Source: an uncultured Bacillota bacterium (GTDB taxonomy: Bacteria > Bacillota_I > Bacilli_A > RF39 > UBA660). Taken from it: a stretch of 64,000 nucleotides of DNA. Shown here one piece after another: positions 2,492 to 44,976 of the stretch. The position numbers and the translations under genes were made by a program. Positions within the stretch are counted from its first letter, which is position 1, and each line of letters begins with the position of its first letter. The notes beneath the pieces were generated by a model. The model did no database searches, was not told where the DNA came from, and saw nothing but the letters and a program-made list of their open reading frames with translations. The stretch covers positions 6,473 to 70,472 of the forward strand of contig ONIZ01000002.1 of NCBI GenBank assembly GCA_900317975.1, read 5' to 3'.

Positions 2492-2582
2492 ATAAAAAAT
2501 TTTGTCGATTAGCGAGAAGAGGAGGGTATTACCACAAAGGGTGGGGGTGTGATAAGTGAATGTCAATACCCCCGTCATATCG

Positions 2583-2614
2583 AACCTCGTGAGAAAACAG
2601 GTCAGATTTCGAAT
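2583..2614 (+). promoter_or_regulatory. conserved 32-nt upstream box, copy 1 (upstream of 2729-3316)
   Basis: aacctcgtgagaaaacaggtcagatttcgaat matches the box at 3811-3842 at 28 of 32 positions. Confidence 0.5.
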
Positions 2615-2728
2615 GAATAAATGTTTTTCAAATATTATTCATTTATTACTGAAGTAAGTCATCTGACTACGCTTGCTTTAGCACATTATCCAATAAGTTA
2701 GTCACTCAATACAAATTCTGTTACAACT

Positions 2729-3316
2729 ATGGCACAGCCAAAAGCTAATGCAGTTGAGCAAGTTCCTGCACAAGTCGTTAACGCAGTTGAAACTGCAAGT
2801 GTTAATCTTCTTAGCTTCTCTGAAGCAGTCGATGCAACGATTGCTGATGGTGGCAAAGTAACAAAGGGTATTCATATTACTCGTGCGACTTATAGTCGTC
2901 GAGAAGATGGACACGAGATTGTTACTTTGACAGGCGATATACCTGTTGAGCGTTATGTTGCTGATGAGACAAATCCTGATGTATTTGTCAAATCAATGTC
3001 CAAGTCATTTGTTGTGTCATTATTCTCATTAGTGGGAATGATGTCCAACATGAAGGACGCACAAGTGCTCGCAGGTCGTATCTCAAAGCGACCAATGTTG
3101 ATAGAGAGTTTGCTACCAGGTAGTATTATTACAGTAGTTCAACGTGATGTCAAAGGTAATGTTCCGTTTATGAACTACTTTAGTAACAAGGAGAATACTA
3201 TCGATCATGATAGTATTGTTACCGACGTAGTCAAACTTGAAGTATCTGATTTTGCTCGTTCTATGATGGATGAGTACAAAAAGATGCTTGCATCTGCATT
3301 GATGGGAGACTTGTAG
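2729..3316 (+). CDS. hypothetical protein, paralog A of a duplicated gene (195 aa)
   Basis: Long ORF that is visibly less A+T-rich than its surroundings. It is strongly similar to 3906-4460 (ITRATYS.RE.DGHE.VTLT...PDVFVKS.SK.FVVSLFSLVG.MS.MKDAQVLAGRISKRP). Confidence 0.8.
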   Translation: MAQPKANAVEQVPAQVVNAVETASVNLLSFSEAVDATIADGGKVTKGIHITRATYSRREDGHEIVTLTGDIPVERYVADETNPDVFVKSMSKSFVVSLFSLVGMMSNMKDAQVLAGRISKRPMLIESLLPGSIITVVQRDVKGNVPFMNYFSNKENTIDHDSIVTDVVKLEVSDFARSMMDEYKKMLASALMGDL

Positions 3317-3324
3317 TTGATGAT

Positions 3325-3362
3325 AGATTTGCAGGTGATGATTGTTCATTGCCTGCAAATCT
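3325..3362 (+). terminator. hairpin after paralog A (terminator-like)
   Basis: Perfect 11-bp stem AGATTTGCAGG/CCTGCAAATCT with a 16-nt loop. The T tract after it is weak. Confidence 0.45.
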
Positions 3363-3432
3363 TTGCATTGTTATAGTTGTAGTATGATGTTGAGTAGAAA
3401 TTGCAATTATTAACCAATTAAATTATACAATT

Positions 3433-3753
3433 ATGATCGCACTTGCTCCAAAACATTCAGAAGCAATTCAAATTCTTGCTTCGCTTCCTAAAAAAGAAGT
3501 TTCTGATGTTCGTCTTGCTTACAATGGTGAAGTAGTAGCCATTGTTGATGAATCAACAATTCGTGCTCTTCAAGTTGCTATTCATGATGGTCTTACAGAT
3601 TATCGTAGATGGCTTATACTTGAAGATTACGATGATGATGAAAATGGTCATCATACAAACTTTCTTCATTTTAGAGAAGATGGTAGAATATCTGATGAGT
3701 TTAAAACAGATTTCTTTAGATTTCTAGACGATCTTGCATACAAGATCTTCTAG
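3433..3753 (+). CDS. hypothetical acidic protein (106 aa)
   Basis: ORF lying between the two paralogs, with an Asp/Glu-rich centre (LEDYDDDENGHH). Confidence 0.65.
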   Translation: MIALAPKHSEAIQILASLPKKEVSDVRLAYNGEVVAIVDESTIRALQVAIHDGLTDYRRWLILEDYDDDENGHHTNFLHFREDGRISDEFKTDFFRFLDDLAYKIF

Positions 3754-3761
3754 TTGATTAT

Positions 3762-3805
3762 GGTTCTAATATAGCTAGTATTCATTTACTAGTTATATTA
3801 GAACC
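3762..3805 (+). terminator. long hairpin (19-bp stem, loop TTCATT)
   Basis: GGTTCTAATATAGCTAGTA pairs with TACTAGTTATATTAGAACC with one G-T wobble. It lies immediately downstream of the stop at 3753. Confidence 0.45.
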
Positions 3806-3810
3806 TCAAA

Positions 3811-3842
3811 AACCTCGTGAGAATACAGGAAAGAATTCGAAT
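3811..3842 (+). promoter_or_regulatory. conserved 32-nt upstream box, copy 2 (upstream of 3906-4460)
   Basis: aacctcgtgagaatacaggaaagaattcgaat matches the box at 2583-2614 at 28 of 32 positions. Confidence 0.5.
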
Positions 3843-3905
3843 CTATTAAGCGTTTAAGCGTTTAACAGTTCTATTAATTATTTAACAATTTAAATTGTAA
3901 AAACA

Positions 3906-4460
3906 ATGAACGATGAAAAAGCAAAGGAAGTTGTAAGTCAGCCACAACTATTGACCTTTACTGAGGCAATTACTGCCACAAAAGCTGACAATGCATCTGA
4001 AGTAAAGAATCTTCAGATTACTCGTGCTACATATTCAAAGCGTGAGGAAGATGGTCATGAAGTAGTGACATTAACAACAAGTGGTCTTGTTGACAGATAT
4101 ATTGCGGATAACGATAATCCCGATGTATTTGTTAAGAGCAAAAGCAAAACTTTTGTAGTATCTTTGTTTAGTCTTGTAGGTGCTATGAGTCAAATGAAAG
4201 ATGCTCAAGTTCTTGCTGGACGTATTTCTAAACGTCCTGTTCTTGTTGAATCTCTTCTTCCTGGTTCTACTATTACTGTACTTCAACGTGAAGTTAAGGC
4301 TAATGTTCCTTTCATGAATTATTTCAGTGGAAAGGAAAACACTATTGACCATGATAGTGTTGTAACAGATATTGCTGATATTAAGCTTGGAGAGTTTGCT
4401 CTTAGTACTCTTGATGCTTATAAGCAAAATCTTGCTGCTGCTCTTATGGGCGATTTGTAA
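3906..4460 (+). CDS. hypothetical protein, paralog B of a duplicated gene (184 aa)
   Basis: Roughly three quarters identical to 2729-3316 over the C-terminal 150 aa, judged by eye. Confidence 0.8.
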   Translation: MNDEKAKEVVSQPQLLTFTEAITATKADNASEVKNLQITRATYSKREEDGHEVVTLTTSGLVDRYIADNDNPDVFVKSKSKTFVVSLFSLVGAMSQMKDAQVLAGRISKRPVLVESLLPGSTITVLQREVKANVPFMNYFSGKENTIDHDSVVTDIADIKLGEFALSTLDAYKQNLAAALMGDL

Positions 4461-4467
4461 AAGAGTT

Positions 4468-4500
4468 GCTGCTGTATTGTGAAATACGGCAGCGATTCTT
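4468..4500 (+). terminator. intrinsic terminator-like hairpin
   Basis: GCTGCTGTATT-GTGA-AATACGGCAGC (one G-T wobble) followed by gattcttatt. Confidence 0.55.
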
Positions 4501-4603
4501 ATTGTAACAGAATTTTCAGGTACATTATAATACCATAAGTGTTATAGTGTACCATTTAATGCAGCTAATTAACAGTCGTAAGCCTGTGTAAATGCAGAAC
4601 GAA

Positions 4604-4765
4604 ATGAAAATTCTTGTTGATAGTGATATTATTATTAAAGAAGTTGATAAATGTGATGATGGAGCAGCTCCTGCTCTCCATTCTAATCATTTTACTAATA
4701 ATATTACTAATCCATTTCAAATAATTAATACAAGAATTAAACAAATGAAACTTATATACATTTAG
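4604..4765 (+). CDS. possible small ORF (53 aa) in an otherwise non-coding region
   Basis: ATG 4604 to TAG 4763-4765 (MKILVDSDIIIKEVDKCDDGAAPALHSNHF...). There is no other support. Confidence 0.2.
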   Translation: MKILVDSDIIIKEVDKCDDGAAPALHSNHFTNNITNPFQIINTRIKQMKLIYI

Positions 4766-5457
4766 TGTAATTAAATATATATTACTAATGTTATATTATC
4801 AATTTTAATTTCCGCACTATAAAGCGCGCCTATTGATATGACAATAATAATGTTGGTAATATAAATACTATCATTTAATATGATATAATTGTAAATCATT
4901 TTGCTATTTAATACATCGATTGACGATGTCTTCGCTGATGATACGCAATATATCATTTAGATGATAGCAATTCATGAAATCCTACTTGGAGACGAGAAAC
5001 GGCTCATATTGAGTATCGTAAAGTTAATCCTTGATAGGTTGCATCAAGAGATACAGCAAAATATATCAGACAGTTTGTTGGTTTATAATGTCTTGATTAT
5101 TTTGTTGTATTTCTTGAGATAGTTTATGTTGAGCCTAGAGCACATAATGCTGCTATAGGTAGAATTTTTCCCATAGTACGTGATTTAGAAACCAACTATG
5201 TTAGCAGTCAGAATAACTGTTATTACAGTAAATCGTCATGCTGTGATAAATATCATATAATGTCAAAAATATGATATGATGACAACGATGCTAAGCAAAA
5301 AGCTGGTAACGATAAGAAAGAGATAGGTGAGAAGAGTGCACTCGCATCTAGACTATCTCTTTATCTTAATGTAGCCAATCGATATGATTGAGAGTCCAAA
5401 GCCTCTATAAATACAGATGGAGATAATATTATTAATAACAAATAAATTCACGCAATC

Positions 5458-5913
5458 ATGAAAAAGTATTTTAAAGAATTTATAGGAACATTAGTTCTTA
5501 TAATTTGTTTTATTATTTTAACAATAACGTTTATTGCTATAGGAAAATATTATAACGATACAATACTTATCGTTATAGGTATAACAATTAATGTTTTAAC
5601 TATAATTATGTTAATTGTTATAAATATTCAAGAAATAAACGAACGTGATAAAATTATACATAATCTAAATGAAAAAATAACTGAAGAACATACTTCAGTT
5701 ATAATGACTAGAATGATGTGTAATCAAGCTTTATCAGATGCTCTAATTTTAAGAAAAATAATTGACCAAAAAAATAAAAAAATAGAAAAATATGAAAAAC
5801 ATATAAATGAATTAATTCATAAAATTAATTGTATAAATAATGAAGCAAAAGAGCTTCAAGATTTATGCAATAGATATGAAACTCAATATGGTAAATTGAC
5901 AGATCAAGAATAA
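5458..5913 (+). CDS. membrane-anchored coiled-coil protein (151 aa)
   Basis: Two hydrophobic N-terminal segments (LVLIICFIILTITFIAIG; ILIVIGITINVLTIIMLIVI) followed by heptad-like charged sequence. Confidence 0.7.
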   Translation: MKKYFKEFIGTLVLIICFIILTITFIAIGKYYNDTILIVIGITINVLTIIMLIVINIQEINERDKIIHNLNEKITEEHTSVIMTRMMCNQALSDALILRKIIDQKNKKIEKYEKHINELIHKINCINNEAKELQDLCNRYETQYGKLTDQE

Positions 5914-5920
5914 ATTTGTT

Positions 5921-5933
5921 CCCCTGTAGAGGG
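5921..5933 (+). repeat. dispersed GC-rich motif copy (cccctgtagaggg), intergenic
   Basis: Forms the hairpin TGTTCCC/GGGAACA at 5918-5937, immediately after the stop of 5458-5913. Confidence 0.85.
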
Positions 5934-6855: not shown

Positions 6856-6894
6856 ACTATTATGTTGTATAATATAATAAAATCAATATAATGG

Positions 6895-7043: not shown

Positions 7044-7065
7044 ATTGAAATATTTTGCTGAAAAA

Positions 7066-7097
7066 TTTGGAATTATCAAAAATATTTTGTATATTTG
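7066..7097 (+). promoter_or_regulatory. Bacteroidota-type promoter for 7147-7692
   Basis: TTTG 7066-7069, a 20-nt spacer, then TATATTTG 7090-7097. The architecture is near-identical to the promoters at 18071 and 25197. Confidence 0.65.
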
Positions 7098-30804: not shown

Positions 30805-33800
30805 TTATTCTTTTAATGATTTACCTATTTCACGAAGACCAGCTTGAGCTTTAGAATTACCTGTACCACCATTATAATAACTATTTCTAGCACCCATATT
30901 AAGAATATTTTTATAAATACGATACACAGGAATATTTCGTGTAGCAAGTACTTCAAGTTTATATCTTCCTTTATATTGACCTGTAGTATATTTTGGATTA
31001 AAATCATCATTAAATAAAATTTCACTTAATATTTCAAAACCTTTCATAATATCTTTAATATTGCTACTTCCAGCAACTGGACTAGCCCACAAAGAATCAA
31101 ATTCAGAAATCATACCTGTAGGTAAATACATATAAGCTTCAGAGAACATACGATTAGCAGTATAAAGAGTATTCGCTAATAATAAATCATCTTTAAAATC
31201 TTCATCATCCCACATAGCATACATTCCAATAACTAATAATGCTGTACCAATAATTCCAGCAATATCACCTATTGCTCTAAGAATATTTCTTTGTTCCCAA
31301 GCAGGTAATAAATTCCAATTTAATGAAATATGTGTAATAGTAGCAATAAATGCATGAGCAATATTTTGTAAAGATTCTAATGCAGAAATATCTGTATCAA
31401 CAATATTACCGTTTTCATCAATTATTTGTTTTTTCTTTAAATCTAAATTTCTAAATTCTGTAGATAAAAATCTTAATAAAGAAGTATAACTACCCATTTC
31501 AACACCTTCAAGAAGTTCATTATAATATCCACCTCCACCAAATATTCCACGATATCTTTTCATAATACCAGGATAAATATGTTTGTGATATTGCATTACT
31601 AATGAACCCCAAAATTCATTTTCAATAGTAGCTCTTCCTAATTTATCATATACACCATGAATCTTTTTATTAACATATATAATTCGTCTTGTAAATTCTT
31701 TAAAAGTAGTATTTCCTATAGTACTATCTAATTCTCCAGTTGAAGGATTTATATTAAGTTTAGAATCATGTTTTATTCTAGTAACTCCACGACCATCTCC
31801 ATTTTTGTTAAGTTTAAATTCAAATTGATCAATAAGTCTATCTTTAGTTTCAAATTCTTTTTTAGCTTTTTCTATAGCTGATTTTCTTCTTTTAATATAT
31901 TCATTTGCTAATTTAGAATTATCATTTGCTTGTCTAGTTATTAACTGTATAAAATCCATACATATATCTTTTTTAAACGTATCATAATCATATTGAACTT
32001 TTTTATCTTTCTTTATATTTTTAATATAATTATTAAATAATGTAATTATAGAAGTACTATTAATTTTATATGAATCTCCCCATTCTGTTATAATTTCTTT
32101 TAAAGTTTCTATTTCTATATCTCTCATATAATCATTTATATTTCCAATTCTATATCCTCCATTTCCATCTTCATAAATTCTAGCATCTTCAATCATAGCG
32201 AGAGCTGCTGTATTTTGCATAAAATGTTCACCCATACTATTAGGACTAAATAAAAAATCATTTAATCTTCTAGCAAATTCAACAGCTGTCGCAGATTTAA
32301 CAAGTTCTCCATTTATTTCATCATAATCTACTGCATTTATTAATTTTATTAATCCATTAGTAAAACTACTAGCGTCGTCATAATACATATCAGCAATTGC
32401 AGATAATACATTTGCTCCATATTTAGCTTCTGCTTTCCACCATGCTTTATTACTAAAATATTCTCCTGCAAATCGCTCTGCTAAAATATTAACTAAACCT
32501 GTACTTACGTTAGCAATACCACCATGTATATTTAACATCATATATTTAGAACTTGTAAATCCTTGTAACAAATTAGCAGCACCAGTTAATTTATGTTGTT
32601 TTTTATATTCATCATATATAACTCTTCTAGCAAATGTTTGCATAATTTTAAAAGCATGTTCTTGTTTTTCAGTTAAATATTTTATCATTTCAGGATTATT
32701 GCTAGAATTTTTATTAACAATAGGTTTACCTGTAATACGATTTCCTTTTATGGCGTCATTTTCTAATAAATCTTCTAATAAAAGATAAAGACTATTTTTT
32801 GCTTTATTTCTGGCTAAATAATTTTCTCCATTTAAAACTAATTGACTATATACTTCTCTCCAATTACGATTTAACATTGCACTATCTAACTCTAAATTAT
32901 TTTTATGTATTTCTTCATTTTCTTTTTTAATATCATTTAAATATTTACTATATTGTTCGTCTGTCTCTCCTTCATTTCTAGGTCTTGCTTTAACTCTCTC
33001 TTTATATCCTTCATTTTTCAACAATTCAAACATTTGAAAATCTGGATCAGAATCATATAAATATCCAATTTCTTCATGCCATTTATCATTAGCAGAACTT
33101 CTATAATTTACACCTAATATATCTAATACAACATTTCTTCTAAATTTTTTATCAGCTCTATGTTCCATTAATCTCGGAGCATAAGTATCAGCAAAACTTC
33201 TTTGTCCATTATTAATAACATATTTTCTTGCTGTATTTATTAAAAAATTAAGCATTTTTATTTCATTATCGTTTAAATTAGCTTTTGAATATTTTTCATT
33301 TATATATTTTTTATCAGCAGTATCTTCTTTAAAATGAGAGCCATAAGTTTTATAATTTGGATTTCTATAGTCAACTTCATCATCATGCCTCGGATTTCTT
33401 TCACTATTATCAAATGTTGGAATATATTCATATTTGTTTCTACTTACTTCATTTTTAATTCTCATATTAGACCAAATAGGTATAGTTTCATATCGTTTAG
33501 TAAATTGATTATAAATATGATTTGCTTCAAACCATTCTTCAAAAGCTCCATTGTTAACCGCATTATCCCAAGCTTCTTTATAATATTCATTTGTTACATA
33601 TTCAATATTTTCATCAATAAAATTTCTTGCAGCAGTTTTTTCTTTATCTATATATTTATCTTTTTGAGATTCAATAGGAGATCTATATCCATAAAATAAA
33701 TATTCAGGCACATATGTATTATCTTCCATAACTAAATCACCAGTTTCACTATCATGTTCAACGAACATTTGTAACCATATTGCAAATTTTGCAGGTTCAG

Positions 33801-36800
33801 ATGTTTGAAAATGAGATTTAACAGTTAAATAATCTGCTTTAAAAGATTCATTATCTGTAACTTTTTCAGTAAGCGCTTTAAGTCTATTTCTTATATCTTT
33901 TGGTAATTTTTTACCTTTTATTTCTCTAAGTTCATTTATTTTATCTCTTAAATTTCTTAATTCTTCTATATTCAAATGACTTAATAATAATATCATATCT
34001 ATACCTTTAGAAGTAACAGCATTTGCATTAACAAATATTTTATTTATTTCTTTAATTTTTTCTAATTTATCAGCATTTTGAGAAAAATGTTCTCCACCAT
34101 ACACATCTAAATAAAATTTATCTTTATAAATAGGTTTTTTAAATCTAACTTGATTTATTAAAGCATCATCACTTAATATAGAAGCATTAGAGCGCAATTT
34201 AGAATTTTCCATAGCATTTTTAATACCACGTTGTTGTTCTAATGATAATTTTCTTCCATCAATTCTACCAAATTCATCAACAAAACCATTACGTTTACAC
34301 CAAATAGTAATATTTTTAAAAGTAGAATGTTTACTTCCTCTTAAAATTTCATAATTTTTAGAAATTTCTTTTAATGTTTTTTCATTTATACTATATATAG
34401 AATTTTTATTTACCCATACATATGCTTCTTTATAAGAAGGATTTTCTAATTTAGCATTTAAAGAAAGTCCTGGATGAAGTTTATCAAATTCAGAAATAAT
34501 ATCTAAATAATGACGAATAGTTTTAACCCATGAATCAGTAGGCTCATATTCTTTATATTTAGAATTTATTTCTTTTAACGATTTTATATAATGATTAAGT
34601 ATTTGTGCTTGTCTATCGATATAAATATTATCAGACGACATCGAAATTATTTCTCCATCTTCAGTTGTATCAAATTCACCTTTAGTTTCTTGTGTTAATT
34701 CAGATAATCTAGAATGTATTTCTTTAATTCTTTTTATATCACTTTCTGTCATAGCAGAAGCATCATATGTAAACCCAGATAATTCATCTTTAAGTTTATT
34801 ATATTCAATAAAATAATTAATAGCATTTTCTCCATTTATAGTTTCATCACCATATAAAATTCTTCTAGTAGCTTCATTTATAGCATCATAATATTCTTTT
34901 ACTAAAAGTTGTTCAACATTTTTAGCAAACCATTCATCTCTTTCTAATTTTGCTTTTAACGCTTGTTCTGAATATTTACCATATTTAGCCATTGCTTCTA
35001 TATAATTATCTATAACAGTTTGTTTATCTTCAAAATATTTATCATTATATTTTTGTATATATTTTCCATGTTCATCTATAATTTTATTCATATCTATATT
35101 TCCAGATTTCATTATATTATCATATTTTTCTTGAAATTCTCTAACTGCATCTGGAGCTTCAATATCTCTAACTCTATCTATAATACCATAAACAAGTTTT
35201 AAAACTGTTTGTATTTGTTTATTATTTGTAAATCCTGCATCAGCAATTTGTAAATCAAACCAATTTATATCACCAAACTGAGTACGAAGTTTTATTAAAT
35301 CATGTCTAATTAATGGATTATTTGAATATTTTTTAGCAATATAAATATTAAATATATTACTAATCGCTCCATTTTCACCATTAAGAAGATTATTATTTCT
35401 AATTAAATTTATAGACTTTCTTATAGTTTCTATACTTTTATTAATAATTTCATCCTCTACTTCAACGTCTAAACTAAATACTTCACCTATATCTCTACCA
35501 AAATTTTTAGCATTGAGAATTAACGCAATCAAATCATCATAATATTCAGGATATTTTAATAATTCTTCATATAAATTTGGATTACCAATATTAAAATCTT
35601 TTTTATTTTCTCCTTCACCTATAACATAATGTTTCATTCTATCTAAAAGAAGATTTGCTTCTTGTTCATAATATGAAGCTGCAGAAACAAATATATTTCT
35701 TTTATTTTTTATAACAGAATCTTTATCATCTACAATTAATTCACCAGTAGAAACTTTTCTAGCAAATCTTTGTATTATACTATTATCTGAACGTTTTGAG
35801 CGATTATACATTCTTTTTGCTAATTCTCCAGCAAATTTATCTATAGGTTCAACTTTTGAGTCTAAAGGCCTACTTACATCATCTTCATCTATAAGTAAAT
35901 TAGTTACAGCTGCTTTAATTTTTCTTTCATTATCTTCTTCTTTAACAGCTTCATTTAATTCCTCATCAGTTTTATATCCAATTTCTACACTCAATAACAT
36001 ATGTTTATCAGCAAATTTATTTTTAAATAAATAATCTATTAAATTATCTTCAGCTTTATTAGAGGTATATTTTTTCTTACCACTTATAGCATTATCTCTT
36101 AAAATTCTTTTAAGACTTTCTAAGTTTTTACGTTTATAAGGTTTTATTATTATTGTATGAAGTTCTCCATCAACAAGTATATCTTGAATTATAGAAGTAT
36201 TTTCTTTAAATAAATTCATTAAATAAGGATTTAAAGTTGCAGCAACAGTATATTTCTTTATATCATCTCCTTCTACAGGGGTTTTAATAAAATCAGTTAT
36301 TTGTTCAATAAACATTTCTATTCCTTTTTTAGAACTTTCATCTCCTTTTTCTCCATTTAATATTTGTTGAAATTCATCATTTTCCATTTTTTCAGCAGCA
36401 TAAACAGGAATTTTATAATTTTCTACTTTATCTTCAGCTGTCGCTCTATTTTCATATTTATATTTATCTAAATCTACAGTAGGTAATACTTTTATAATAT
36501 CTTTAAATTGAGTTTCATAATACTCGTGTTTATATAAAGGATTATTCTCTTCTTTTACAGAATAATCATTATATTCATTTTCTTCTAATATTCCAATAGG
36601 ATATAAATATATTCCATATAAAGCATTTTCTATTTCTATTCTTTCTACTTTATATAATTCAATTTTATCATTCTTTGATTTTATTTTTACAAATCCTTTA
36701 GTTTGATCAGAACCTAAAATTTTCTTTATCAAAGATTGATTTGGACTATTTTTATTGCCTACTTTTATTAAAACACTTCTATCAGAATTTGTACTATTAT

Positions 36801-39800
36801 AAAATATACTTTTTTCACTTGAATTTGTATCTTTTGAAATAGTAGTATTTAAATTTAATTCTTTTATAAATGTATGATGTTGTCTAATAAATCTTTCTAT
36901 AAATGTATTTCCAGATTTTTCTCTAATATCTATATCATGCAATTGAGAGCTTAATTCTTCTACAAAACTATAATTAGGATTAATTGTAAATCCATAATCA
37001 TTATTAGATGTATAAAGAAAATCATTTGTTATAATTCTAGAAATTCCACCAAATTTAAAATTATCTCCTTCAACAATAAATGCATATTTAACTAAATCTG
37101 CAGCAGCTAATTTAATTAAAGGATTTTTACTAAATGCAGCTTTTCTAAAAGCAGAATATAAAATTTCAACATCATTACCAAATTTAACTTTCAGGCTATT
37201 TATGTTTACCCCGTAGAGGGAATAACTGCCACGAGAAATATAATTTGTTTCAATATAATTAAATATTTCAGCATTATTTCTAAAATGTAATTTAATCCAA
37301 TCTACTTTTTGTGCAGGAGTTAATTTACTAAAAGCTTTAATTTCTTCTTTTGTAGGTTTTTCTATATTATTTACTTTAATATCCCTATATCCTTGTACAC
37401 CAAATCCAAAAATTCTCATTTTTTCTCTATTCCAATAATTTGCATGAGGTGTAACAGTATTAGCATCGTTTTCTGTATTTTTTTCAGAAATATCTAAATT
37501 TTCAATATCCGGAATAAATCTATTATATTTATCTACAATTAAAGGTGTAACAAGAGTTTTATTTTCATTAAATACACTGCTTACAATATATTTTTTATAT
37601 TCTTTGTATTCATCATTTGTTAATCTTCTACCTAATTTATGTTCTATTAATTCACATAAACTAAATGTTTTATTATCATTAAATAGTTCTACTAATCCAT
37701 AATAACCTAAACTAAATTCAGGACTTTCTAAGTCAAATAATTGACTATTTATTACAACAGATGGAATTGTAGTATACTTTAAAAAACTTGCTAAATATTC
37801 ATAAGAACTATCTTTTTCTCTTAATCCACTACGTTCAAATAAACCTGGATACAAAGATTGTAAAAATGGAATATCTTTATCATTTGTAATTTCAAATATA
37901 GCATCATTATTTGCATTAAATCCATAATTATATATATTTATTAAAGCTTCTTTAGTATCATGAATAGTTTGTTTTGCACCAAATTTATCAGGATTACAAC
38001 ATTGAACTAAATTTTCTATATTTTTTGTTATACCATTTAATTGAGAATAAATAGAAAGAACTTGAAATTGATGTAATAAAGTATCATTTCCATTTAATGC
38101 ATTATATAAATCTTTAACGTTTATTATATTTTCATCAGAAAGTTTAAAAAATTCTTTTCCCTTTTTTATAACTGTTTTTAAATCAGAATAATTACTAACT
38201 TCATTATATCCAGCTTCATTTAATATTTGAACCATAGTTTCAACTATAGCATTATTATTATCATTTATATAAATAGATTTATTATTATTAAAATTTTTAA
38301 CTAATTTAGTAATAGCAGGTTGAGCCAAAAATCCTATAGCTGTGCTATAATCTATTCCTAAGTCTATTAATGTTTTAAATATTCCAAATGTGTCTTCAGT
38401 TTCATTTATAATAGCACCTTCTTTTACAGCATCGAGAATATGAGCAGTTGTTTCAGAAGAATATACTGTCATTAAACGACCTAAAATATTGCGATTTGTA
38501 GTTTTACCATTATGTGAATGCCATCCTAGTTCATCATGAGCAACAATATATTCATCATCATTACTTTCTCTATATTCGTTATATAAGCTTTTTAAATTAT
38601 CTTTTTTATCTTTTAAAGTTTCTCCTTCAAATATATCTTCATAAGATTTTTTATCACTATTATATATTTGCTGATTTAAATCATAAGCTACTAAAATAGG
38701 AGTTTTTAATTTTCCATGTATTTTATTAGAAACAGATAAAAATGTATCACGTTGTACAGATAGTGCTTTTAATCTAGCTCCCATAATAGCATCTTCAAAA
38801 AATTGAATTTGTGTTAAAGTATTTGCAACAGCTTGATTATGTTTTGATTTTATTGCTTCAAGTTTAGAGATAGTTTTATTAACAGCAGTTATATCATCAA
38901 AATTAGAACGTGACATATTTTCTTCAAATGAAGAATCATTTTTAAGTATCTCTAAAAAATTATCTATTATATTATTATTTCTTGCTTCTCTAATTTGTTG
39001 TTCTAATATAGGTAATTTTATAAATTCGTCATATTTTATAAGATTATATTCATTTGCTAAATCGTTTATAGCAGATAATAATGCAGCGTGATAAGATTCT
39101 TTTTCAGATTCTATTCTATTCCAATTATCAGATATATTATTTAATTCATTTGTAATAGCTTTTCTATCATTTATTATATCTATTAGTTCTTGTATAGAAC
39201 TTTTAATTTGAGGATTAATTTTAGGACTTTTTAAAAATATTTTAAATTGTTCAATATAATGTTTATCTCTTATTTCTAAATCACCATAAGCATCATTTAT
39301 TTTTTTCATATTTCTGCTAATCATTTCTTTTATATTAGCAGGTAATGATTGAATTAATTCATTTTGTTGTTTATAATTATTTTTAAAATAATCAGTATTT
39401 TGTAATTTAGCTTGTATATTATTAATATCTTTTAAAATATTAGATATATTATTTCTTTTTTCTTCATTTAAAAGTTTATTATCTTTGTTTAATGTATCTT
39501 GTAATGTTTTTATTCTACCATTTTTAATTAGTTGTTTTATATAAGCTATATATCTATTTTCTCTATCTAATTGAGTATCTTTATTATTTTCATTTATTTT
39601 TTCAAAATTTTTAGTTTTTTCATTATATCTAAAATTATGACATATACCATAAATAGAGTCAACATCAAAGTCAGAACCTGTTTGAGTAACCCATTCATTA
39701 GGAACAAATATTGTACTACCATAAATATCATCGACAAAACCAACAACTTTCATTATTGCAACAGATTGTTTTCCTTCAGTAGGAATACGATAGCCAATAT

Positions 39801-42800
39801 GTTCTAATAATTTAGCATCATTTAATTTTTTAAGAATTTCTTCATCAAACTTTTGTTGTTCTTTTTCTATTCTAGTATAATATACATCATTACTTTCATT
39901 TTCTTTTTTAGGCGTACGTTTATATTTAGGAATATTCATACTCCAACGAGGAATAAGAACTTCTATATATGGAACATAATTTCCTTTCTCGTCACTATGA
40001 TATTTTAATGTACGTATTTTTCCAGTAGTATCTCTAACACCTGTACCTACACCTGATACTTGTGCCATATGCCAACCTGGAAGAGTTTGTTTTCTAACTG
40101 AAGAATTAAACAAAGCTTGAGTAACACTTTCTTGTTTTTCACTATTTATATTCATAAAATTAGGCATTTTAGGATAGCCAGCAGTTTCATCTATTTCAAA
40201 ATATTCTTTAAAATTACTATCCATTCCAAGTCTTTCTGCTTCTTGTAATGCTCTTATATAGAATTCTCTAAAATCAAGTAATTCTTTTCCATTGCTACGA
40301 TTAACAATTCTTCCAGTATTTTTATCAATCATCCAACCCATATTAAAAAGCATTTGATCATAACTTGCTTTAATATTAGTTGAAAAATTAGTTATAAATG
40401 CGTTTACAAATTTATCTACATCTTCTGTAGCATTATCAATTATTTTCTTTGTAATTTGTAAACCTGCTTTATTAACTTCATCTTTGGTATGTTCAGCTAC
40501 ATCTTGCTGTTTCCAAAGATTTCTATAATAATAATCTTCTACTACATTATAATTATAATTTCTATTATCTCCATCTAAAGGGGAACTAATTTGAGAAATA
40601 AATTCATCATAATTAACAACTTTTTGATTATTATCCCAAAATGTTAAAATATCTCTATTGGCTGCTTTAGAAGTTTCTATTGTATTAACTTGATCTATAC
40701 CAGCTTCAACCATAGCGTTATATAATTTCTCTAAATCAGTTCCAACTAATAATTCAGGAATAAGTACAAATTCAGCATTTTTTATTTGACGAGGATACAT
40801 TGTTCCTGTCTTTTTATCTGTTTGTATATCAAAATAAAAATTCTTTTGTACTTGTATTCTTTTATTTATAGAATTAATATCAACGTCTGCAAGAGTTATT
40901 TCTTTAGAACGAAGTTTATTAATAGTTTCAATTAAATCTTTATATTCATTATAAGTGCCATCAGCATACCTACGTCTTATCCATTCTTCAAAAGTTATAT
41001 ACGATTGAGCATCATTAACTTTAGTTTTAGCATTAGTAAAAGCGTCACTTAAATAATTTACTAATCTATTAGCAACAGATTTAGAAACAATACCATCTGC
41101 TACTTTTTTATCCATAGTTTTTTGCAATTGTTTTTTAATAATATCTCCTTGCTCACTTGTTTTTACTGTATTTTCAATAGTTATTGCTCTAAAACCGTTT
41201 CTTGCATATATAGGAACTTGTTTAATTATCCATTTTTCTTTTCCATTTTCATCTTTAGTTCTAACTTTTATATTAGATGTAGTTATTAATTCTTCTTTTC
41301 CGTTATATTTTAAATTATGTATATCTGTTCCAGGTTGCTCATAAATATCACCACCATAATAAACTTGTCCACCAGCTTGAACTTCTTTTGCTCGTTTTAA
41401 AAAAGTACGTATATCATCTTGACGATTACCTTCATCGTCTTCAGACCATTTATTATAAAATTTATTATCACCTGTAATTATAGGTTCTGTGGCAAGTCTT
41501 ATATAAGTTGTCGCTAAAACAAAATTAACAACATCTAAGTTTGTTTTATTTAATTTTTTAAGATTTATATCCAATACATTAGAATATTCATTTAAAGCAT
41601 CTGTAGTATCTTTTTGAAATTCCATTAGCCAATCTGATACAACATCATCTAAAATATTATCTATTTCTTCAGTATATTTAAAATCTACAATAACTTTTTG
41701 TCCTTTTTTATTTATATTAAGTTTTATAATATCAGAATCTTCATTTATATATAAATTGTCTTTATCATCTGTATAAAATAATGAATTAGTATTTACATCC
41801 CCGTAGAGTGATAATTTATTATTTAATATGCTATCTACATCAAAATTACCAATTTTAAATAATTTATCAAATCTAAAGAAATTACCAACTAATTTTCCAT
41901 TTTCTATTATTTTATTGCCTTTTCTATGAACTAAATTAATAAGTCCTTTTTTAGATTTAGCTATTTTCCAATTGTTTCCACCAACTTTATCATTATCTTC
42001 AGTTTCTATAACATTTCCTAGTTGATGTATATAATTATATAATTCAGATTTTAATAATTGTTTGTAACCTAGAAATATTTCAGAATTTTTATTTATTTTT
42101 CTTTCTATAGAATTCTCTTCAATTTCATTTTCTATAATATTATTTTTAAATATGCTTACAAATGTATCTGTTAATGTATCTTCTAAAAATTTATTTTTTA
42201 ATACATATAAATTATTAATTTCACTAAATTTAAATATTTTTTTACTATTATCTACATATTCTATTTTCATTTCTAAATAAAATGTAGTATCGCCTTCTTT
42301 ATAAATTATTGGAACAGTAGAAACCCCATTACTATTTTTAATCGAGAAAGCATAACTTCTATATGTATCATTATTTTTACCAATTAATGTTCTAAAAAAT
42401 TTAGATTTGTCAAAATTATGTTGTTCTCCAAGTCTGTTTAATTTATTATTTAATTCATATTCAAAATCAGTTTTAGCCAATTCATTTATTTTTGTAACTT
42501 TATTATTATAAAGTGATATAAATTTTGCAACAGCTACAGAATCTTTTCCATCATAACTAAAAATATCATCTGTTTTAATAGGAGGAACAGACATTATATA
42601 ATTTTTTTGAGCATCTGATGGAGTATCTAAGAAAAATGCTAATCCTTTTTCTTCTGTGCCTGGTTGATTAATACCATTAAAAAATGCTAAAAGTTGTGTA
42701 AAGAAATAATCACTTTTTGTAGCAGATTGATATGTTACTGATTGGCTATAATCTGTTTTTTGAATACCATCAAAAAGAAATATATCAAAATACTTTTTAA

Positions 42801-44976
42801 AATTTTCATTTACAACTATATTTCCTTCATTATCTTTTATAAATAAACCTGGTCTTATAATTCTACCTTTTCTATCTTTTAATCCATAAAAAAATGGATT
42901 TTCTTCTATTTGACTTAAATTACCATATCTTCTAATTAAAGTTCTACTTCCTTTTAAACTACTTTCTTTAATAGCCTCAAAAAGATTACTAATATGGCTA
43001 TTTGCTATAAGATTAGAAGAATTATTACCATTTGCATTAGGTGAATTTAAATCAATTGTAGTAGTATTATAACTTGTTAAAAGTTTTGTTATTGTAATTA
43101 AAGAAGCTTTAATACTTTTTTCATTTTCTATATCAATTGTTTCTTCTAAACTAAAAGTTGGACGTATGGGAGATTTAAGATTTGTACTTTTTATAACATT
43201 ATTAGCTAAATCTTCCATTTCTTTATCAAAGGCTCTTCTTTTTTCTCTATATTCGCTATATTCTTTATTAAATTTATCTCTTCCATTACTATATTTTTTA
43301 TATAATCTGTCAATTTCTTTAGAAAGTTGTTTTACATGGTGTAATAAATTAAGTACATCGGCATAAGGAGCATTTTCTATAAAATCAGAAATTGCTGTAA
43401 AATTATAATTTGGTGCAATAGTTCTAAAAAAATCAATAATAGGTCCAATAAGTTTAATTTTTTCTTCATTAGACATATTTTCACTAATATTTAATTTAGA
43501 AATTTTTTCTTGTAATTCAGAAGAAACATTCAAAAAATTAATTGTATAATCATTACGCAATCTTAAATATTCTTTATTGACTGCGTCTGCATCATTATTA
43601 CTTCTAGAAAATTCAAATTGATTTGTTTCTGGATTTATTTTTACAGTAGCTTTTTTAACTTTGTAATGAGCTAAATTTCTATATATATTTCTAGCAAAAA
43701 CAGGATTATTTTTCATTTCTACAATCATTGGCATAATTCCATAAAATTCAGGAATTTCAGTAGCCATTTTAGTAAGTTTTTCTATAAGAGACTCTATAGA
43801 ATTAAAACTATCTATAGTTTTGACATTTTTAATCAATTGAATATAAAGATTTTCTCCATCATAATTTTCTTTTACTCCTAAAGGATTATTTCTAGAATAG
43901 TTAGGAATTTCATTTTCTCCAGTTGTATAAGGAGAATCTAATTTATATAATACAGTTCCTAAATATATTTGAAAATTACTATCAATTAATTTTTTATAAC
44001 TATTGGCTACTTTACCTTTATCCCAACCATTATCTTCATTTCTATCTTGTTCTGCATTTTCAAAATCTATAGCGTCGTCGAAATCTGTGACTTCATAAAT
44101 ATCATCAACGTCTAATTTTGAAAATTGTTGACTAACTTTATTAACTGTAGCTAAAGATTTTACTTCAGTAAACCAAATAGCATAATTATACATAACTTGA
44201 TTATATAATGCAGTATAATTTTTAACTTCAGTAGTTCCAAATATTTCTATAAAATTTAATAAAAATGCATTTCGTTCAACAGCTTTAGCTTTTAATAAAT
44301 CATTTATTTCTTTTTTATTTTCAGCAGCAGCATTTTTAAAATCATTTTGCAATTGTATCAATTCATTATTTAATTTTTTTAATTCTATTAATTTAGAACT
44401 TAAAATTTTTTCTTCATCTGTTAATTTATCAGAGTTATTTTCTATTTCTGATTCTTTAATTTTAATAAATGATGGAAGCACATATCCATAATATTCATCT
44501 TTTATTTCATTTTTAGTAATATCAAATATTTTTTCAATAGATTCATTTTGATGTTTTAAATAATTAATTCTTATTCTATTTGCAGTATAATTTTTTCCAT
44601 ATTCTAATGCAATTTGATTTTCAAATCCTCTAAGCTCATATCCTTCTCTTATAGCAGCATAATCTTTAACATTTTCGTTAGTTACTCTATAGTATCTGTT
44701 AAAAATTGCACTTAATTGATTAAAATTATAATTTTTTAATTCTTCGATAGTTTTAAGTTTATTATCTTCAGAATAATTTAATCGTAAATCGCTATTTATA
44801 CTTTCTAAATATTGATTTGCAATTTTAACTACTTCATCCAAATGATGTTCTAAACCATAAGCAATAGTTATTGCTTTAAGTTTATTGTTTCCTGCAACTT
44901 GGTCACTTTCTATGACTCTTTTTATACTCGGAGTTATTATTTCCGATGTATTTAAATGAAAAATAAGACAATTCAT
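30805..44976 (-). CDS. giant virion-associated protein (4723 aa) containing a two-barrel RNA polymerase-like catalytic motif
   Basis: An uninterrupted 14.2-kb ORF. GSDFDVDS (39658-39672, rc) fits the DxDxD metal site of double-psi beta-barrel RNAPs as reported for crAss-like virion RNAPs. A hydrophobic segment lies near the C-terminus. Confidence 0.7.
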   Translation of the reverse strand: MNCLIFHLNTSEIITPSIKRVIESDQVAGNNKLKAITIAYGLEHHLDEVVKIANQYLESINSDLRLNYSEDNKLKTIEELKNYNFNQLSAIFNRYYRVTNENVKDYAAIREGYELRGFENQIALEYGKNYTANRIRINYLKHQNESIEKIFDITKNEIKDEYYGYVLPSFIKIKESEIENNSDKLTDEEKILSSKLIELKKLNNELIQLQNDFKNAAAENKKEINDLLKAKAVERNAFLLNFIEIFGTTEVKNYTALYNQVMYNYAIWFTEVKSLATVNKVSQQFSKLDVDDIYEVTDFDDAIDFENAEQDRNEDNGWDKGKVANSYKKLIDSNFQIYLGTVLYKLDSPYTTGENEIPNYSRNNPLGVKENYDGENLYIQLIKNVKTIDSFNSIESLIEKLTKMATEIPEFYGIMPMIVEMKNNPVFARNIYRNLAHYKVKKATVKINPETNQFEFSRSNNDADAVNKEYLRLRNDYTINFLNVSSELQEKISKLNISENMSNEEKIKLIGPIIDFFRTIAPNYNFTAISDFIENAPYADVLNLLHHVKQLSKEIDRLYKKYSNGRDKFNKEYSEYREKRRAFDKEMEDLANNVIKSTNLKSPIRPTFSLEETIDIENEKSIKASLITITKLLTSYNTTTIDLNSPNANGNNSSNLIANSHISNLFEAIKESSLKGSRTLIRRYGNLSQIEENPFFYGLKDRKGRIIRPGLFIKDNEGNIVVNENFKKYFDIFLFDGIQKTDYSQSVTYQSATKSDYFFTQLLAFFNGINQPGTEEKGLAFFLDTPSDAQKNYIMSVPPIKTDDIFSYDGKDSVAVAKFISLYNNKVTKINELAKTDFEYELNNKLNRLGEQHNFDKSKFFRTLIGKNNDTYRSYAFSIKNSNGVSTVPIIYKEGDTTFYLEMKIEYVDNSKKIFKFSEINNLYVLKNKFLEDTLTDTFVSIFKNNIIENEIEENSIERKINKNSEIFLGYKQLLKSELYNYIHQLGNVIETEDNDKVGGNNWKIAKSKKGLINLVHRKGNKIIENGKLVGNFFRFDKLFKIGNFDVDSILNNKLSLYGDVNTNSLFYTDDKDNLYINEDSDIIKLNINKKGQKVIVDFKYTEEIDNILDDVVSDWLMEFQKDTTDALNEYSNVLDINLKKLNKTNLDVVNFVLATTYIRLATEPIITGDNKFYNKWSEDDEGNRQDDIRTFLKRAKEVQAGGQVYYGGDIYEQPGTDIHNLKYNGKEELITTSNIKVRTKDENGKEKWIIKQVPIYARNGFRAITIENTVKTSEQGDIIKKQLQKTMDKKVADGIVSKSVANRLVNYLSDAFTNAKTKVNDAQSYITFEEWIRRRYADGTYNEYKDLIETINKLRSKEITLADVDINSINKRIQVQKNFYFDIQTDKKTGTMYPRQIKNAEFVLIPELLVGTDLEKLYNAMVEAGIDQVNTIETSKAANRDILTFWDNNQKVVNYDEFISQISSPLDGDNRNYNYNVVEDYYYRNLWKQQDVAEHTKDEVNKAGLQITKKIIDNATEDVDKFVNAFITNFSTNIKASYDQMLFNMGWMIDKNTGRIVNRSNGKELLDFREFYIRALQEAERLGMDSNFKEYFEIDETAGYPKMPNFMNINSEKQESVTQALFNSSVRKQTLPGWHMAQVSGVGTGVRDTTGKIRTLKYHSDEKGNYVPYIEVLIPRWSMNIPKYKRTPKKENESNDVYYTRIEKEQQKFDEEILKKLNDAKLLEHIGYRIPTEGKQSVAIMKVVGFVDDIYGSTIFVPNEWVTQTGSDFDVDSIYGICHNFRYNEKTKNFEKINENNKDTQLDRENRYIAYIKQLIKNGRIKTLQDTLNKDNKLLNEEKRNNISNILKDINNIQAKLQNTDYFKNNYKQQNELIQSLPANIKEMISRNMKKINDAYGDLEIRDKHYIEQFKIFLKSPKINPQIKSSIQELIDIINDRKAITNELNNISDNWNRIESEKESYHAALLSAINDLANEYNLIKYDEFIKLPILEQQIREARNNNIIDNFLEILKNDSSFEENMSRSNFDDITAVNKTISKLEAIKSKHNQAVANTLTQIQFFEDAIMGARLKALSVQRDTFLSVSNKIHGKLKTPILVAYDLNQQIYNSDKKSYEDIFEGETLKDKKDNLKSLYNEYRESNDDEYIVAHDELGWHSHNGKTTNRNILGRLMTVYSSETTAHILDAVKEGAIINETEDTFGIFKTLIDLGIDYSTAIGFLAQPAITKLVKNFNNNKSIYINDNNNAIVETMVQILNEAGYNEVSNYSDLKTVIKKGKEFFKLSDENIINVKDLYNALNGNDTLLHQFQVLSIYSQLNGITKNIENLVQCCNPDKFGAKQTIHDTKEALINIYNYGFNANNDAIFEITNDKDIPFLQSLYPGLFERSGLREKDSSYEYLASFLKYTTIPSVVINSQLFDLESPEFSLGYYGLVELFNDNKTFSLCELIEHKLGRRLTNDEYKEYKKYIVSSVFNENKTLVTPLIVDKYNRFIPDIENLDISEKNTENDANTVTPHANYWNREKMRIFGFGVQGYRDIKVNNIEKPTKEEIKAFSKLTPAQKVDWIKLHFRNNAEIFNYIETNYISRGSYSLYGVNINSLKVKFGNDVEILYSAFRKAAFSKNPLIKLAAADLVKYAFIVEGDNFKFGGISRIITNDFLYTSNNDYGFTINPNYSFVEELSSQLHDIDIREKSGNTFIERFIRQHHTFIKELNLNTTISKDTNSSEKSIFYNSTNSDRSVLIKVGNKNSPNQSLIKKILGSDQTKGFVKIKSKNDKIELYKVERIEIENALYGIYLYPIGILEENEYNDYSVKEENNPLYKHEYYETQFKDIIKVLPTVDLDKYKYENRATAEDKVENYKIPVYAAEKMENDEFQQILNGEKGDESSKKGIEMFIEQITDFIKTPVEGDDIKKYTVAATLNPYLMNLFKENTSIIQDILVDGELHTIIIKPYKRKNLESLKRILRDNAISGKKKYTSNKAEDNLIDYLFKNKFADKHMLLSVEIGYKTDEELNEAVKEEDNERKIKAAVTNLLIDEDDVSRPLDSKVEPIDKFAGELAKRMYNRSKRSDNSIIQRFARKVSTGELIVDDKDSVIKNKRNIFVSAASYYEQEANLLLDRMKHYVIGEGENKKDFNIGNPNLYEELLKYPEYYDDLIALILNAKNFGRDIGEVFSLDVEVEDEIINKSIETIRKSINLIRNNNLLNGENGAISNIFNIYIAKKYSNNPLIRHDLIKLRTQFGDINWFDLQIADAGFTNNKQIQTVLKLVYGIIDRVRDIEAPDAVREFQEKYDNIMKSGNIDMNKIIDEHGKYIQKYNDKYFEDKQTVIDNYIEAMAKYGKYSEQALKAKLERDEWFAKNVEQLLVKEYYDAINEATRRILYGDETINGENAINYFIEYNKLKDELSGFTYDASAMTESDIKRIKEIHSRLSELTQETKGEFDTTEDGEIISMSSDNIYIDRQAQILNHYIKSLKEINSKYKEYEPTDSWVKTIRHYLDIISEFDKLHPGLSLNAKLENPSYKEAYVWVNKNSIYSINEKTLKEISKNYEILRGSKHSTFKNITIWCKRNGFVDEFGRIDGRKLSLEQQRGIKNAMENSKLRSNASILSDDALINQVRFKKPIYKDKFYLDVYGGEHFSQNADKLEKIKEINKIFVNANAVTSKGIDMILLLSHLNIEELRNLRDKINELREIKGKKLPKDIRNRLKALTEKVTDNESFKADYLTVKSHFQTSEPAKFAIWLQMFVEHDSETGDLVMEDNTYVPEYLFYGYRSPIESQKDKYIDKEKTAARNFIDENIEYVTNEYYKEAWDNAVNNGAFEEWFEANHIYNQFTKRYETIPIWSNMRIKNEVSRNKYEYIPTFDNSERNPRHDDEVDYRNPNYKTYGSHFKEDTADKKYINEKYSKANLNDNEIKMLNFLINTARKYVINNGQRSFADTYAPRLMEHRADKKFRRNVVLDILGVNYRSSANDKWHEEIGYLYDSDPDFQMFELLKNEGYKERVKARPRNEGETDEQYSKYLNDIKKENEEIHKNNLELDSAMLNRNWREVYSQLVLNGENYLARNKAKNSLYLLLEDLLENDAIKGNRITGKPIVNKNSSNNPEMIKYLTEKQEHAFKIMQTFARRVIYDEYKKQHKLTGAANLLQGFTSSKYMMLNIHGGIANVSTGLVNILAERFAGEYFSNKAWWKAEAKYGANVLSAIADMYYDDASSFTNGLIKLINAVDYDEINGELVKSATAVEFARRLNDFLFSPNSMGEHFMQNTAALAMIEDARIYEDGNGGYRIGNINDYMRDIEIETLKEIITEWGDSYKINSTSIITLFNNYIKNIKKDKKVQYDYDTFKKDICMDFIQLITRQANDNSKLANEYIKRRKSAIEKAKKEFETKDRLIDQFEFKLNKNGDGRGVTRIKHDSKLNINPSTGELDSTIGNTTFKEFTRRIIYVNKKIHGVYDKLGRATIENEFWGSLVMQYHKHIYPGIMKRYRGIFGGGGYYNELLEGVEMGSYTSLLRFLSTEFRNLDLKKKQIIDENGNIVDTDISALESLQNIAHAFIATITHISLNWNLLPAWEQRNILRAIGDIAGIIGTALLVIGMYAMWDDEDFKDDLLLANTLYTANRMFSEAYMYLPTGMISEFDSLWASPVAGSSNIKDIMKGFEILSEILFNDDFNPKYTTGQYKGRYKLEVLATRNIPVYRIYKNILNMGARNSYYNGGTGNSKAQAGLREIGKSLKE
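36269..36281 (-). repeat. dispersed GC-rich motif copy (rc cccctgtagaagg), in the giant RNAP-like gene
   Basis: Translated as TPVEGD. Confidence 0.7.
37209..37220 (+). repeat. dispersed GC-rich motif copy (ccccgtagaggg), in the giant RNAP-like gene
   Basis: Translated on the reverse strand as SLYGV. Confidence 0.65.
40571..40583 (-). repeat. dispersed GC-rich motif variant (rc cccctttagatgg), in the giant RNAP-like gene
   Basis: A weaker copy. Confidence 0.45.
41799..41810 (+). repeat. dispersed GC-rich motif copy (ccccgtagagtg), in the giant RNAP-like gene
   Basis: Translated on the reverse strand as SLYGD. Confidence 0.6.

Follow-up and report, generated by a model that had tools for sequence, protein, structure and literature searches.

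A conserved box heading gene cassettes in a crAss-like phage lineage as a candidate promoter of the virion RNA polymerase

The most abundant viruses in the human gut are the crAss-like phages, all of which inject a giant, unusual RNA polymerase that is related to the eukaryotic polymerases of RNA interference. For phage N4, the promoter of the virion RNA polymerase is an inverted repeat with a 5-7 bp stem and a 3-nt loop, and it is read on single-stranded DNA. The two-barrel polymerase gp96 of P23-45, which is fused to a tape measure, goes with a strongly conserved AT-rich motif (10.1101/2022.12.01.518664). In phage phi14:2, the virion enzyme gp66 makes rifampicin-resistant early RNAs, and middle and late RNAs are made by the host polymerase from sigma-A-like promoters (10.1101/2020.03.07.982082). 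An early-promoter motif for crAss-like phages was not found in the literature that we searched. Here we describe a short element, referred to as the box, that occurs twice in a 64-kb stretch of DNA (the window, C78:6473-70472, part of a 1.9-Mb assembly bin), each time ahead of one of two paralogous genes resembling crAss-type single-stranded DNA-binding proteins (SSBs). The box is best read as a conserved, lineage-restricted regulatory element forming terminator-promoter cassettes like the promoter early stem-loop (PeSL) units of T4. It is probably a transcription-initiation signal of some polymerase; the full claim, a promoter of early transcription that is read by the virion RNA polymerase, is put forward tentatively, as a reading that stops a little short of probable.

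The two boxes (A and B, Table 1) lie where the initial annotation had placed them, are identical at 28 of 32 positions and end 115 nt (A) and 64 nt (B) upstream of the start codons of paralogs A and B. A search for the 19-nt core AACCTCGTGAGAAWACAGG that allowed up to 3 mismatches found only these two sites in the window and nothing in 100 shuffles; at up to 2 mismatches, the same two sites were the only ones across the 1.9-Mb bin. The contig C78 measures 89,241 bp and its ends share an exact 99-bp overlap, from which it follows that it is a complete circular genome of ~89 kb. This genome contains 2 boxes, both intergenic and co-directional with the next gene. The box is asymmetric, without inverted repeat or self-complementarity, and does not have a fold of its own (z-scores of -0.4 and +0.4). 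RNAalifold gave no conserved pairing with the box blocks, only invariant or sporadic pairs touching the box, and Rfam returned no relevant family for the box region even at E-values (E) up to 10. The N4 type of promoter is therefore a poor match, as the box lacks an inverted repeat and the flanking hairpins are long, variable and located outside the conserved blocks.

Protein clusters with at least 60% identity to the paralogs number 8 in 5.8 billion proteins, and their contigs provided 7 informative loci; close relatives were located only in ENA and Logan assemblies. The relatives came from samples SRR30829489, SRR31968895, ERR12352619, SRR30832639 and SRR18056067 and from ENA assemblies ERZ943828, ERZ27250628 and ERZ28563652. 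The box is conserved in every relative found. The nearest one, L007, has both paralogs adjacent to each other, lacks the acidic gene that separates them in the window, and retains both boxes unchanged. Loci L003-L006, L126, L127, L128 and L129 have a single, 183-aa copy of the gene and three boxes wherever the contig reaches far enough. Across the window clade, the 17 instances of the box (14 of them distinct) at 7 loci fall into three positional classes. Anchored on the right side, the box takes the form AACCTCG, N3-5, GAWAAC, N5, AGATTTCGA; AACCTCG is invariant, the consensus of the right part is GAnaAC-N5-AGattTCGa, and the flanks differ among instances. Boxes of class c1, such as box A, are located 3' of a G/C-rich element (...CCCCCGTCAT, then 5 nt), and in L003, L126, L127 and L129 they likewise follow it directly. 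Class c2 boxes are found ~75 nt upstream of the gene, in L126-L128 immediately 3' of a hairpin and a T-run. Class c3 boxes, such as box B, lie 3' of the gene, beyond a hairpin and then a half-box AACCTCA, and precede TTAAGCGTT. There is one box ahead of each cassette and none past the last. In L003, L126, L127 and L128 the c3 box heads an unrelated 97-aa gene, which is missing from the window and L007.

These positions allow two simpler origins of the box to be rejected. It is not a flank that was duplicated together with the paralogs: single-copy relatives have three boxes, A and B belong to different positional classes, and, because single-copy phages already have c3 ahead of the 97-aa gene, the boxes were not copied with the gene. 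Comparison of the loci indicates that the second gene copy was placed behind a pre-existing c3 box. Nor is the box a terminator motif like the one near the P23-45 left end, given that it stands ahead of the first cassette and is not found after the last. The initial annotation had considered the box a candidate promoter for a different polymerase or a conserved 5'-UTR element, shared by a duplicated gene pair. The box does behave as a conserved cis-element of a non-host type, for which a promoter of another polymerase is the best available reading, but the pair of boxes did not arise through the gene duplication.

Beyond the window clade, a degenerate box (CTCN-N3-5-NNNAAC-N5-ARNWTYBG) heads equivalent cassettes in three other Intestiviridae-related lineages. 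Among GenBank phage records, matches to the paralog family are limited to cr3_1 (Diorhovirus) and MT836835. The cr3_1 genome has a G/C element, GAGGGGAC...ACCCCGGGGTC...CTCCCCCCGT, and then three boxes of the form (T/A)CCCTCN-N3-4-AATAAC-AANAA-AGAATYYGR, the second after a T-run and the third after a strong intrinsic terminator, then ATTAAGCGTTCTAT. The degenerate pattern matches exactly 3 sites in its 91 kb, all on one strand, with 0 sites for the reversed-pattern control. A further 6 IMG/VR genomes retain all three boxes, with a varying cassette between boxes 1 and 2, a distance between these two boxes of about 305 or 607 nt and a changing flank ahead of box 2. MT836835 has four boxes, CCTCATAC-WWYAAC-ATAAT-RAATYTTGG, of which b2 and b3 directly follow hairpin-plus-T-run terminators and the fourth heads a homolog of the window paralogs. 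Three sites are present in cr271_1 (Hacihdavirus), including CTCATTC-TCAAC-AGAAC-AAGATTGG after a G/C element and a c3-like box followed by TTAAGCGTT. In public collections, a 16-base box pattern gave only single chance matches in unrelated viral contigs, and a 20-base pattern gave 0 matches in viral contigs and only chance coding matches in JGI metagenomes and GTDB genomes.

Some of these loci hold further features. The word TTAAGCGTT(CTAT) is found 6-35 nt 3' of c3 boxes in the window clade (window 3849-3857; L003 5660), in cr3_1 (L153 2641) and in cr271_1 (L176, minus strand, 2102), whatever gene comes next, with only a partial version in MT836835; it may be a conserved leader start or a small RNA. 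Behind the first cr3_1 box, translation by eye shows an unannotated open reading frame (ORF) of ~63 aa (L153 1345-1565) that is membrane-like and has raised G+C. The GC-rich cr3_1 gene at L153 2031-2543 was tried as a member of the paralog family and was not supported (hhalign probability 3%).

An obvious question is whether the box could be read by the host polymerase. The phage has five near-identical copies of a host-type promoter (TTTG-N20-TAnnTTTG), at 1584 (minus strand), 1632, 7066, 18071 and 25197. On the plus strand between 1663 and 7066, no match to TTTG-N18-22-TAnnTTTG was found, in agreement with the initial annotation, which had seen no TTTG/TAnnTTTG promoter at the boxes. The right block of the box, AGATTTCGA or AGAATTCGA, does not conform to the -7 element (TAnnTTTG) of the Bacteroidota primary sigma factor, and in place of a -33 TTTG about 19-21 nt upstream there is the left block AACCTCG, 15-17 nt from the right block. 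On these comparisons, the box is not a host-type promoter. It might still be read by the host RNA polymerase with a non-primary sigma factor or a phage activator, giving middle-type expression of the SSB genes, and that SSB is a replication protein, replication genes typically not being of the earliest class, would agree with this. Moreover, the right block in cr3_1 and MT836835 ends in ...TTTGG or ...CTTGG, loosely like the host -7 element, and a candidate for a divergent winged-helix regulator is present at 1085-1522 (weak Pfam match, E 0.07). We nevertheless regard this alternative as distinctly unlikely: the box fails to match TAnnTTTG at its two specified positions and has no -33 TTTG, the 15-17 nt between CCTC and the right block differ from the 20-nt spacer of the five host-type promoters, and the large ORFs scanned matched no sigma factor, although no search was aimed at sigma-factor genes.

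The surroundings of the boxes fit a promoter. Several boxes lie within a few nt after hairpin-plus-T-run terminators (c2 in L126-L128, b3 in cr3_1, b2 and b3 in MT836835), so that upstream transcripts would mostly stop before the box. On the 3' side, hairpins of unrelated sequence directly follow most c1 and c2 boxes in the relatives and most boxes of cr3_1 and MT836835, as judged by reading the sequences. The hairpin ahead of box B keeps its stem in L007 with a different inner sequence. The box thus looks like a promoter because it follows a terminator, starts a hairpin-capped leader and occurs once per cassette, with none after the last. As is characteristic of phage-specific promoters, the motif is conserved, has the orientation of the transcription units that it precedes and stands directly ahead of them.

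We propose that the box would act as the core promoter of phage early transcription units and would have three parts, (A/C)CCTCN, then after 3-5 nt NNWAAC, then after 5 nt ARAWTYBGR. These three blocks are spaced ~11 nt apart, roughly one helical turn, and lie on the same face of the duplex. Each unit would run from an upstream hairpin or terminator via the box and a 5' hairpin leader to the cargo. Transcription would start at or just past the 3' edge of the box, yielding an RNA headed by a stabilising hairpin, and the two boxes in the window would drive the two crAss-type SSB copies.

The same hairpins could suggest that the box acts at the RNA level, as a sequence-specific site at which an endoribonuclease of host or phage would cleave or define 5' ends, cutting a polycistronic early RNA into hairpin-bounded units. 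A hairpin stands upstream of the box and usually another one downstream, as around processing sites, and the box is predicted to be single-stranded, like many RNase sites. RNA cutting also seems to be used in this arm, since the next intergenic regions contain two twister-like ribozymes, kept in L007 (5650-5703 and 6750-6810), that would cut likewise in their own intergenic regions. Both candidates lie in an ORF-poor island downstream of paralog B and score below the gathering threshold of RF03160 (67.2 bits); the letters of the conserved core align, and they are likely true in spite of their sub-threshold scores. For the box, however, processing is an unlikely explanation. Most transcripts would stop before those boxes that come right after terminators, and the first box does not have an upstream gene or promoter-proximal transcript to process: the sole host-type promoter upstream of it is the one at 1632, and transcripts from there would meet a strong terminator at 2037-2076. 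The absence of an Rfam match argues in the same direction, and the variable 3-5-nt spacer together with blocks about one helical turn apart fits recognition of duplex DNA better. A promoter therefore remains the reading that we prefer.

An architectural parallel is provided by the PeSLs of T4 (PMC2839356, PMC4122927), which are repeated, co-directional units of a terminator hairpin and a promoter around small variable early genes, the units being conserved and the cargo swapped. At the boxes, too, a terminator stem-loop stands beside the motif and the arrangement is repeated around variable small genes. There are also differences: PeSLs contain host sigma-70 early promoters, whereas the box misfits the host (Bacteroidota-type) promoter and, judged from the PeSL descriptions, is unrelated in sequence. 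The cargo between c1 and c2 is variable, consisting of a 70-aa ORF in L126 and of non-coding sequence in L127, L003 and L129. In L127 this cassette (142-350, ~200 nt) is G+C-rich, has a strong terminator at its end and was read as non-coding without an ORF scan; it is a candidate small RNA under control of the box.

Since cargo between boxes differs among close relatives, the box could in principle be a protein-binding (operator) site, or a recombination site for exchange of early cassettes, with no direct role in initiation. The second SSB copy of the window, located behind a box that heads the 97-aa gene elsewhere, would be an example of such exchange, and the T4 work shows that PeSL repeats can mediate shuffling (PMC2839356, PMC4122927). 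This reading is very improbable in our view. Most operators are palindromic and the box is asymmetric, the insertion of the acidic gene is bounded by TAGTTGAT and not by boxes, and shuffling is compatible with promoter function, PeSLs being units of promoter and terminator.

If the box is a promoter, its likeliest reader would be an injected, virion-packaged RNA polymerase, because the box misfits host sigma-A and serves the sole part of the rightward arm in which host-type promoters are lacking. The window encodes such an enzyme in a 4723-aa ORF. Residues 1500-2100 align with the 'putative RNAP catalytic subunit' gp33 of crAss002 (33% identity, E 3e-71) and match 105 phage records, Cellulophaga phages among them; further matches to RNA polymerase catalytic subunits are in cr107_1, cr271_1, ctbg_1 and p-crAssphage. 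The ORF has both the DFDxD motif and the homology to crAss RNA polymerase that mark a virion RNA polymerase of Crassvirales. Giant ORFs of 4000-4600 aa are also present in five crAss records and are annotated as RNA polymerase in 3 of the 5. With phmmer, the region had no direct match to a PDB chain; 6VR4 is the PDB entry of gp66. The phage also encodes a DNA polymerase, a primase and a Dda-like helicase. Based on the RNA polymerase motif and homology, the giant-ORF counterparts and the replication genes, the window belongs to a crAss-like phage.

This phage resembles phi14:2 in encoding a homolog of the catalytic region of gp66 and in having a genome that is likewise split, into a stretch without host-type promoters and operons that have them. 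With N4 and P23-45, which likewise inject a polymerase of their own, it shares a few strongly conserved copies of a phage-specific motif upstream of the genes that are, here presumably, expressed first. The two-barrel enzyme gp96 of P23-45 belongs, broadly, to the class of the crAss polymerase. The P23-45 motif, on the other hand, is AT-rich and was mapped by Oxford Nanopore (ONT)-cappable-seq and chromatin immunoprecipitation sequencing (ChIP-seq), whereas the box is known from sequence alone.

Several observations weigh against an early promoter of the virion polymerase. We infer the early status of 2583-7066 from layout alone, and SSB, as a replication protein, may belong to another temporal class. 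The window clade has few independent lineages, so that counts of conserved boxes are not counts of independent events. For phi14:2, the only experimental study saw no motif shared upstream of the early transcripts of the virion polymerase and no specific initiation on double-stranded DNA, gp66 being efficient in vitro on single-stranded DNA and weak or inactive on double-stranded DNA (10.1101/2020.03.07.982082); a conserved box would be new for this enzyme family. With a stricter CCTC pattern, the box was not found in the whole genomes of crAss001, crAss002, cr107_1, ctbg_1 and p-crAssphage LMMB, and a relaxed CTC pattern found none in the SSB-gene loci of crAss002, cr107_1, ctbg_1 and LMMB, nor in the first 2 kb of crAss001. 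Because it was not found in those five genomes, the box in its present form is not general to Crassvirales. A more specific version of the proposal would make the three-part box (CCTC / AAC / AWTYBG) the promoter of an Intestiviridae-type two-barrel virion polymerase, and the SSB that it drives first a cofactor of that polymerase on injected DNA. Given the preference of the enzyme for single-stranded templates in vitro, such a cofactor would have counterparts in the SSB of N4 and in RPA, which works with QDE-1. We consider this version unlikely.

Two structures on either side of box A deserve attention. Upstream, the G/C element aligns in all 6 window-clade loci as well as in cr3_1 and MT836835, with CCCCCGT invariant, and a similar element precedes the first cr271_1 box. 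The initial annotation had taken a G5/C5 pairing within it for the structured leader of copy A. Its position ahead of the box probably excludes it from that leader, whose structure consists instead of the hairpin and pseudoknot at 2611-2705. The segments GGGGGTGT and ATACCCCC can indeed pair (hairpin 2540-2576, -18.8 kcal/mol, z -3.2), but covariation does not support the pairing: 71% of cells are paired, the same as in shuffles, with 1 compensatory pair, and we rejected the hairpin, as unsupported, as a conserved structure. The G/C element might terminate transcription that arrives from upstream, assist the first promoter or form part of a purine-rich non-coding region. The word AATACCCCCGT does recur, at 2156-2166, one base off the 2157-2167 first reported. 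In its longer form, AATACCCCCGT(TAGTG / CATATCG) at 2156-2171 and 2565-2580, it resembles the word CCCCTGTAGAG (CCCCCGTAGAGG in cr3_1), and this CCCCTGTAGAG tag may have a variant copy in the C-run of the G/C element.

Downstream of box A, the leader pseudoknot has 97% of cells paired and 4 compensatory pairs, compared to 21-40% for slid controls (7 sequences from 2-3 lineages). The segment 2648-2728 and the c2 leader of single-copy phages are homologous, so that copy A retains an ancestral leader; this suggests that the c2 box was lost in the window lineage and that c1 now drives the gene. Copy B does not have the pseudoknot. In T4, the translational operator of gene 32 is likewise a pseudoknot at the 5' end, to which the phage SSB binds (PMC535899, PMC3014915), and in both lytic phages the way to the start codon of an SSB-type gene leads from a pseudoknot near the 5' end through an A/U-rich stretch. 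By analogy, the pseudoknot of copy A may be an autoregulatory operator through which the protein represses its own translation. By sequence, however, neither the protein is related to gp32 nor the RNA to the gp32 operator, and in the window only copy A has the structure.

The two genes behind the boxes are clear paralogs, with 119 of 170 residues identical (70%, E 6e-89), and are less A+T-rich than their neighbours, as the initial annotation had also stated (GC 0.405 and 0.369, G+C at third codon positions (GC3) 0.32 and 0.20). Other genes have a mean GC of 0.264 and a GC3 of 0.09 +/- 0.035, and the paralogs are the most G+C-rich genes nearby. The family comprises 147 representative clusters at E up to 1e-3, and its profile matches the ssb protein of LMMB (QIN93248.1, E 3e-17) and proteins of cr271_1 (E 7e-67), ctbg_1 (E 7e-47) and crAss002 (E 8e-17). 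Family members are annotated as 'ssb' in CrAssphage LMMB (QIN93248.1) and as 'single stranded DNA-binding protein' in cr110_1. Pfam, PHROG and PDB sequence searches gave no match. The AlphaFold2 model is confident (predicted local distance difference test (pLDDT) 85.7, predicted TM-score (pTM) 0.76) and has matches among predicted crAss proteins (E 4e-15 to 1e-6); for the best three, one of them named SSB, the query-normalised TM-score (TMq) is 0.72-0.79. Against the PDB, the top Foldseek matches are the oligonucleotide-binding (OB) folds of cellular SSBs, with weak scores (E about 0.01, TMq 0.24-0.27). By homology the paralogs are members of the crAss-type SSB family, and we infer that they bind single-stranded DNA. 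The duplication could not be dated, as the tree was unresolved with outgroups that are too distant.

Some observations concern these genes and their neighbourhood. In cr271_1 (MT774394.1, pig gut) there are also two SSB-like copies, at 1519-1920 and 91465-91950 (minus strand), ~2.3 kb apart across the record junction, so that duplication of the SSB-like gene recurs in the family. The gene at 19160-19966 is similarly raised in G+C (0.395, GC3 0.20) and may be another highly expressed gene. Between the paralogs, and unrelated to them as originally described, lies the acidic gene, for which no homolog was found in any fetched locus. Its insertion of ~437 nt is bounded by an 8-nt direct repeat, TAGTTGAT (3314-3321 and 3751-3758), with a stop codon in each copy.

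Table 1. Features in and around the box-headed cassettes, in window coordinates
Feature	Position	Strand	Basis or remark
Box A (class c1), AACCTCG-TGA-GAAAAC-AGGTC-AGATTTCGA-AT	2583..2614	+	identical in L007
Box B (class c3), AACCTCG-TGA-GAATAC-AGGAA-AGAATTCGA-AT, then TTAAGCGTT	3811..3842	+	unchanged in L007
Half-box AACCTCA	3802..3808	+	present ahead of every class c3 box
Perfect 19-bp hairpin directly ahead of box B	3762..3805	+	-27 kcal/mol, z -11.7
G/C element (G-runs, then ...AATACCCCCGTCAT)	2520..2575	+	always upstream of first box
Hairpin beginning at 3' edge of box A; putative transcript 5' end	2611..2644	+	folding
Leader pseudoknot of copy A	2652..2705	+	stem 1: 2652-2659 with 2671-2678; stem 2: 2663-2669 with 2699-2705
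Paralog A, crAss-type SSB-like, 195 aa	2729..3316	+	family profile, predicted structure
11-bp hairpin 3' of paralog A, AGATTTGCAGG...CCTGCAAATCT	3325..3362	+	read from sequence
Acidic 106-aa gene, insertion private to this genome	3433..3753	+	absent from L007
Paralog B, crAss-type SSB-like, 184 aa	3906..4460	+	paralogy, family profile
Twister-P1-like ribozyme candidate	4553..4606	+	Rfam RF03160, 44.4 bits, E 2.9e-8
Twister-P1-like ribozyme candidate	5363..5424	+	Rfam RF03160, 57.1 bits, E 6e-12
First downstream host-type promoter (-33 TTTG / -7 TAnnTTTG)	7066..7097	+	ends the stretch served only by boxes
4723-aa ORF with virion RNA polymerase catalytic region	30805..44976	-	DFDVD at residue 1769, homology

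The box provides a defined and conserved candidate signal, and thereby a template for in vitro transcription and 5'-end mapping. The layout of terminator and box would account for the exchange of small early genes between these phages, and the pseudoknotted leader of the SSB gene suggests a second, post-transcriptional level of control. If the box is indeed an early promoter read by the virion RNA polymerase, the early regions of uncultured crAss genomes could be annotated from sequence.

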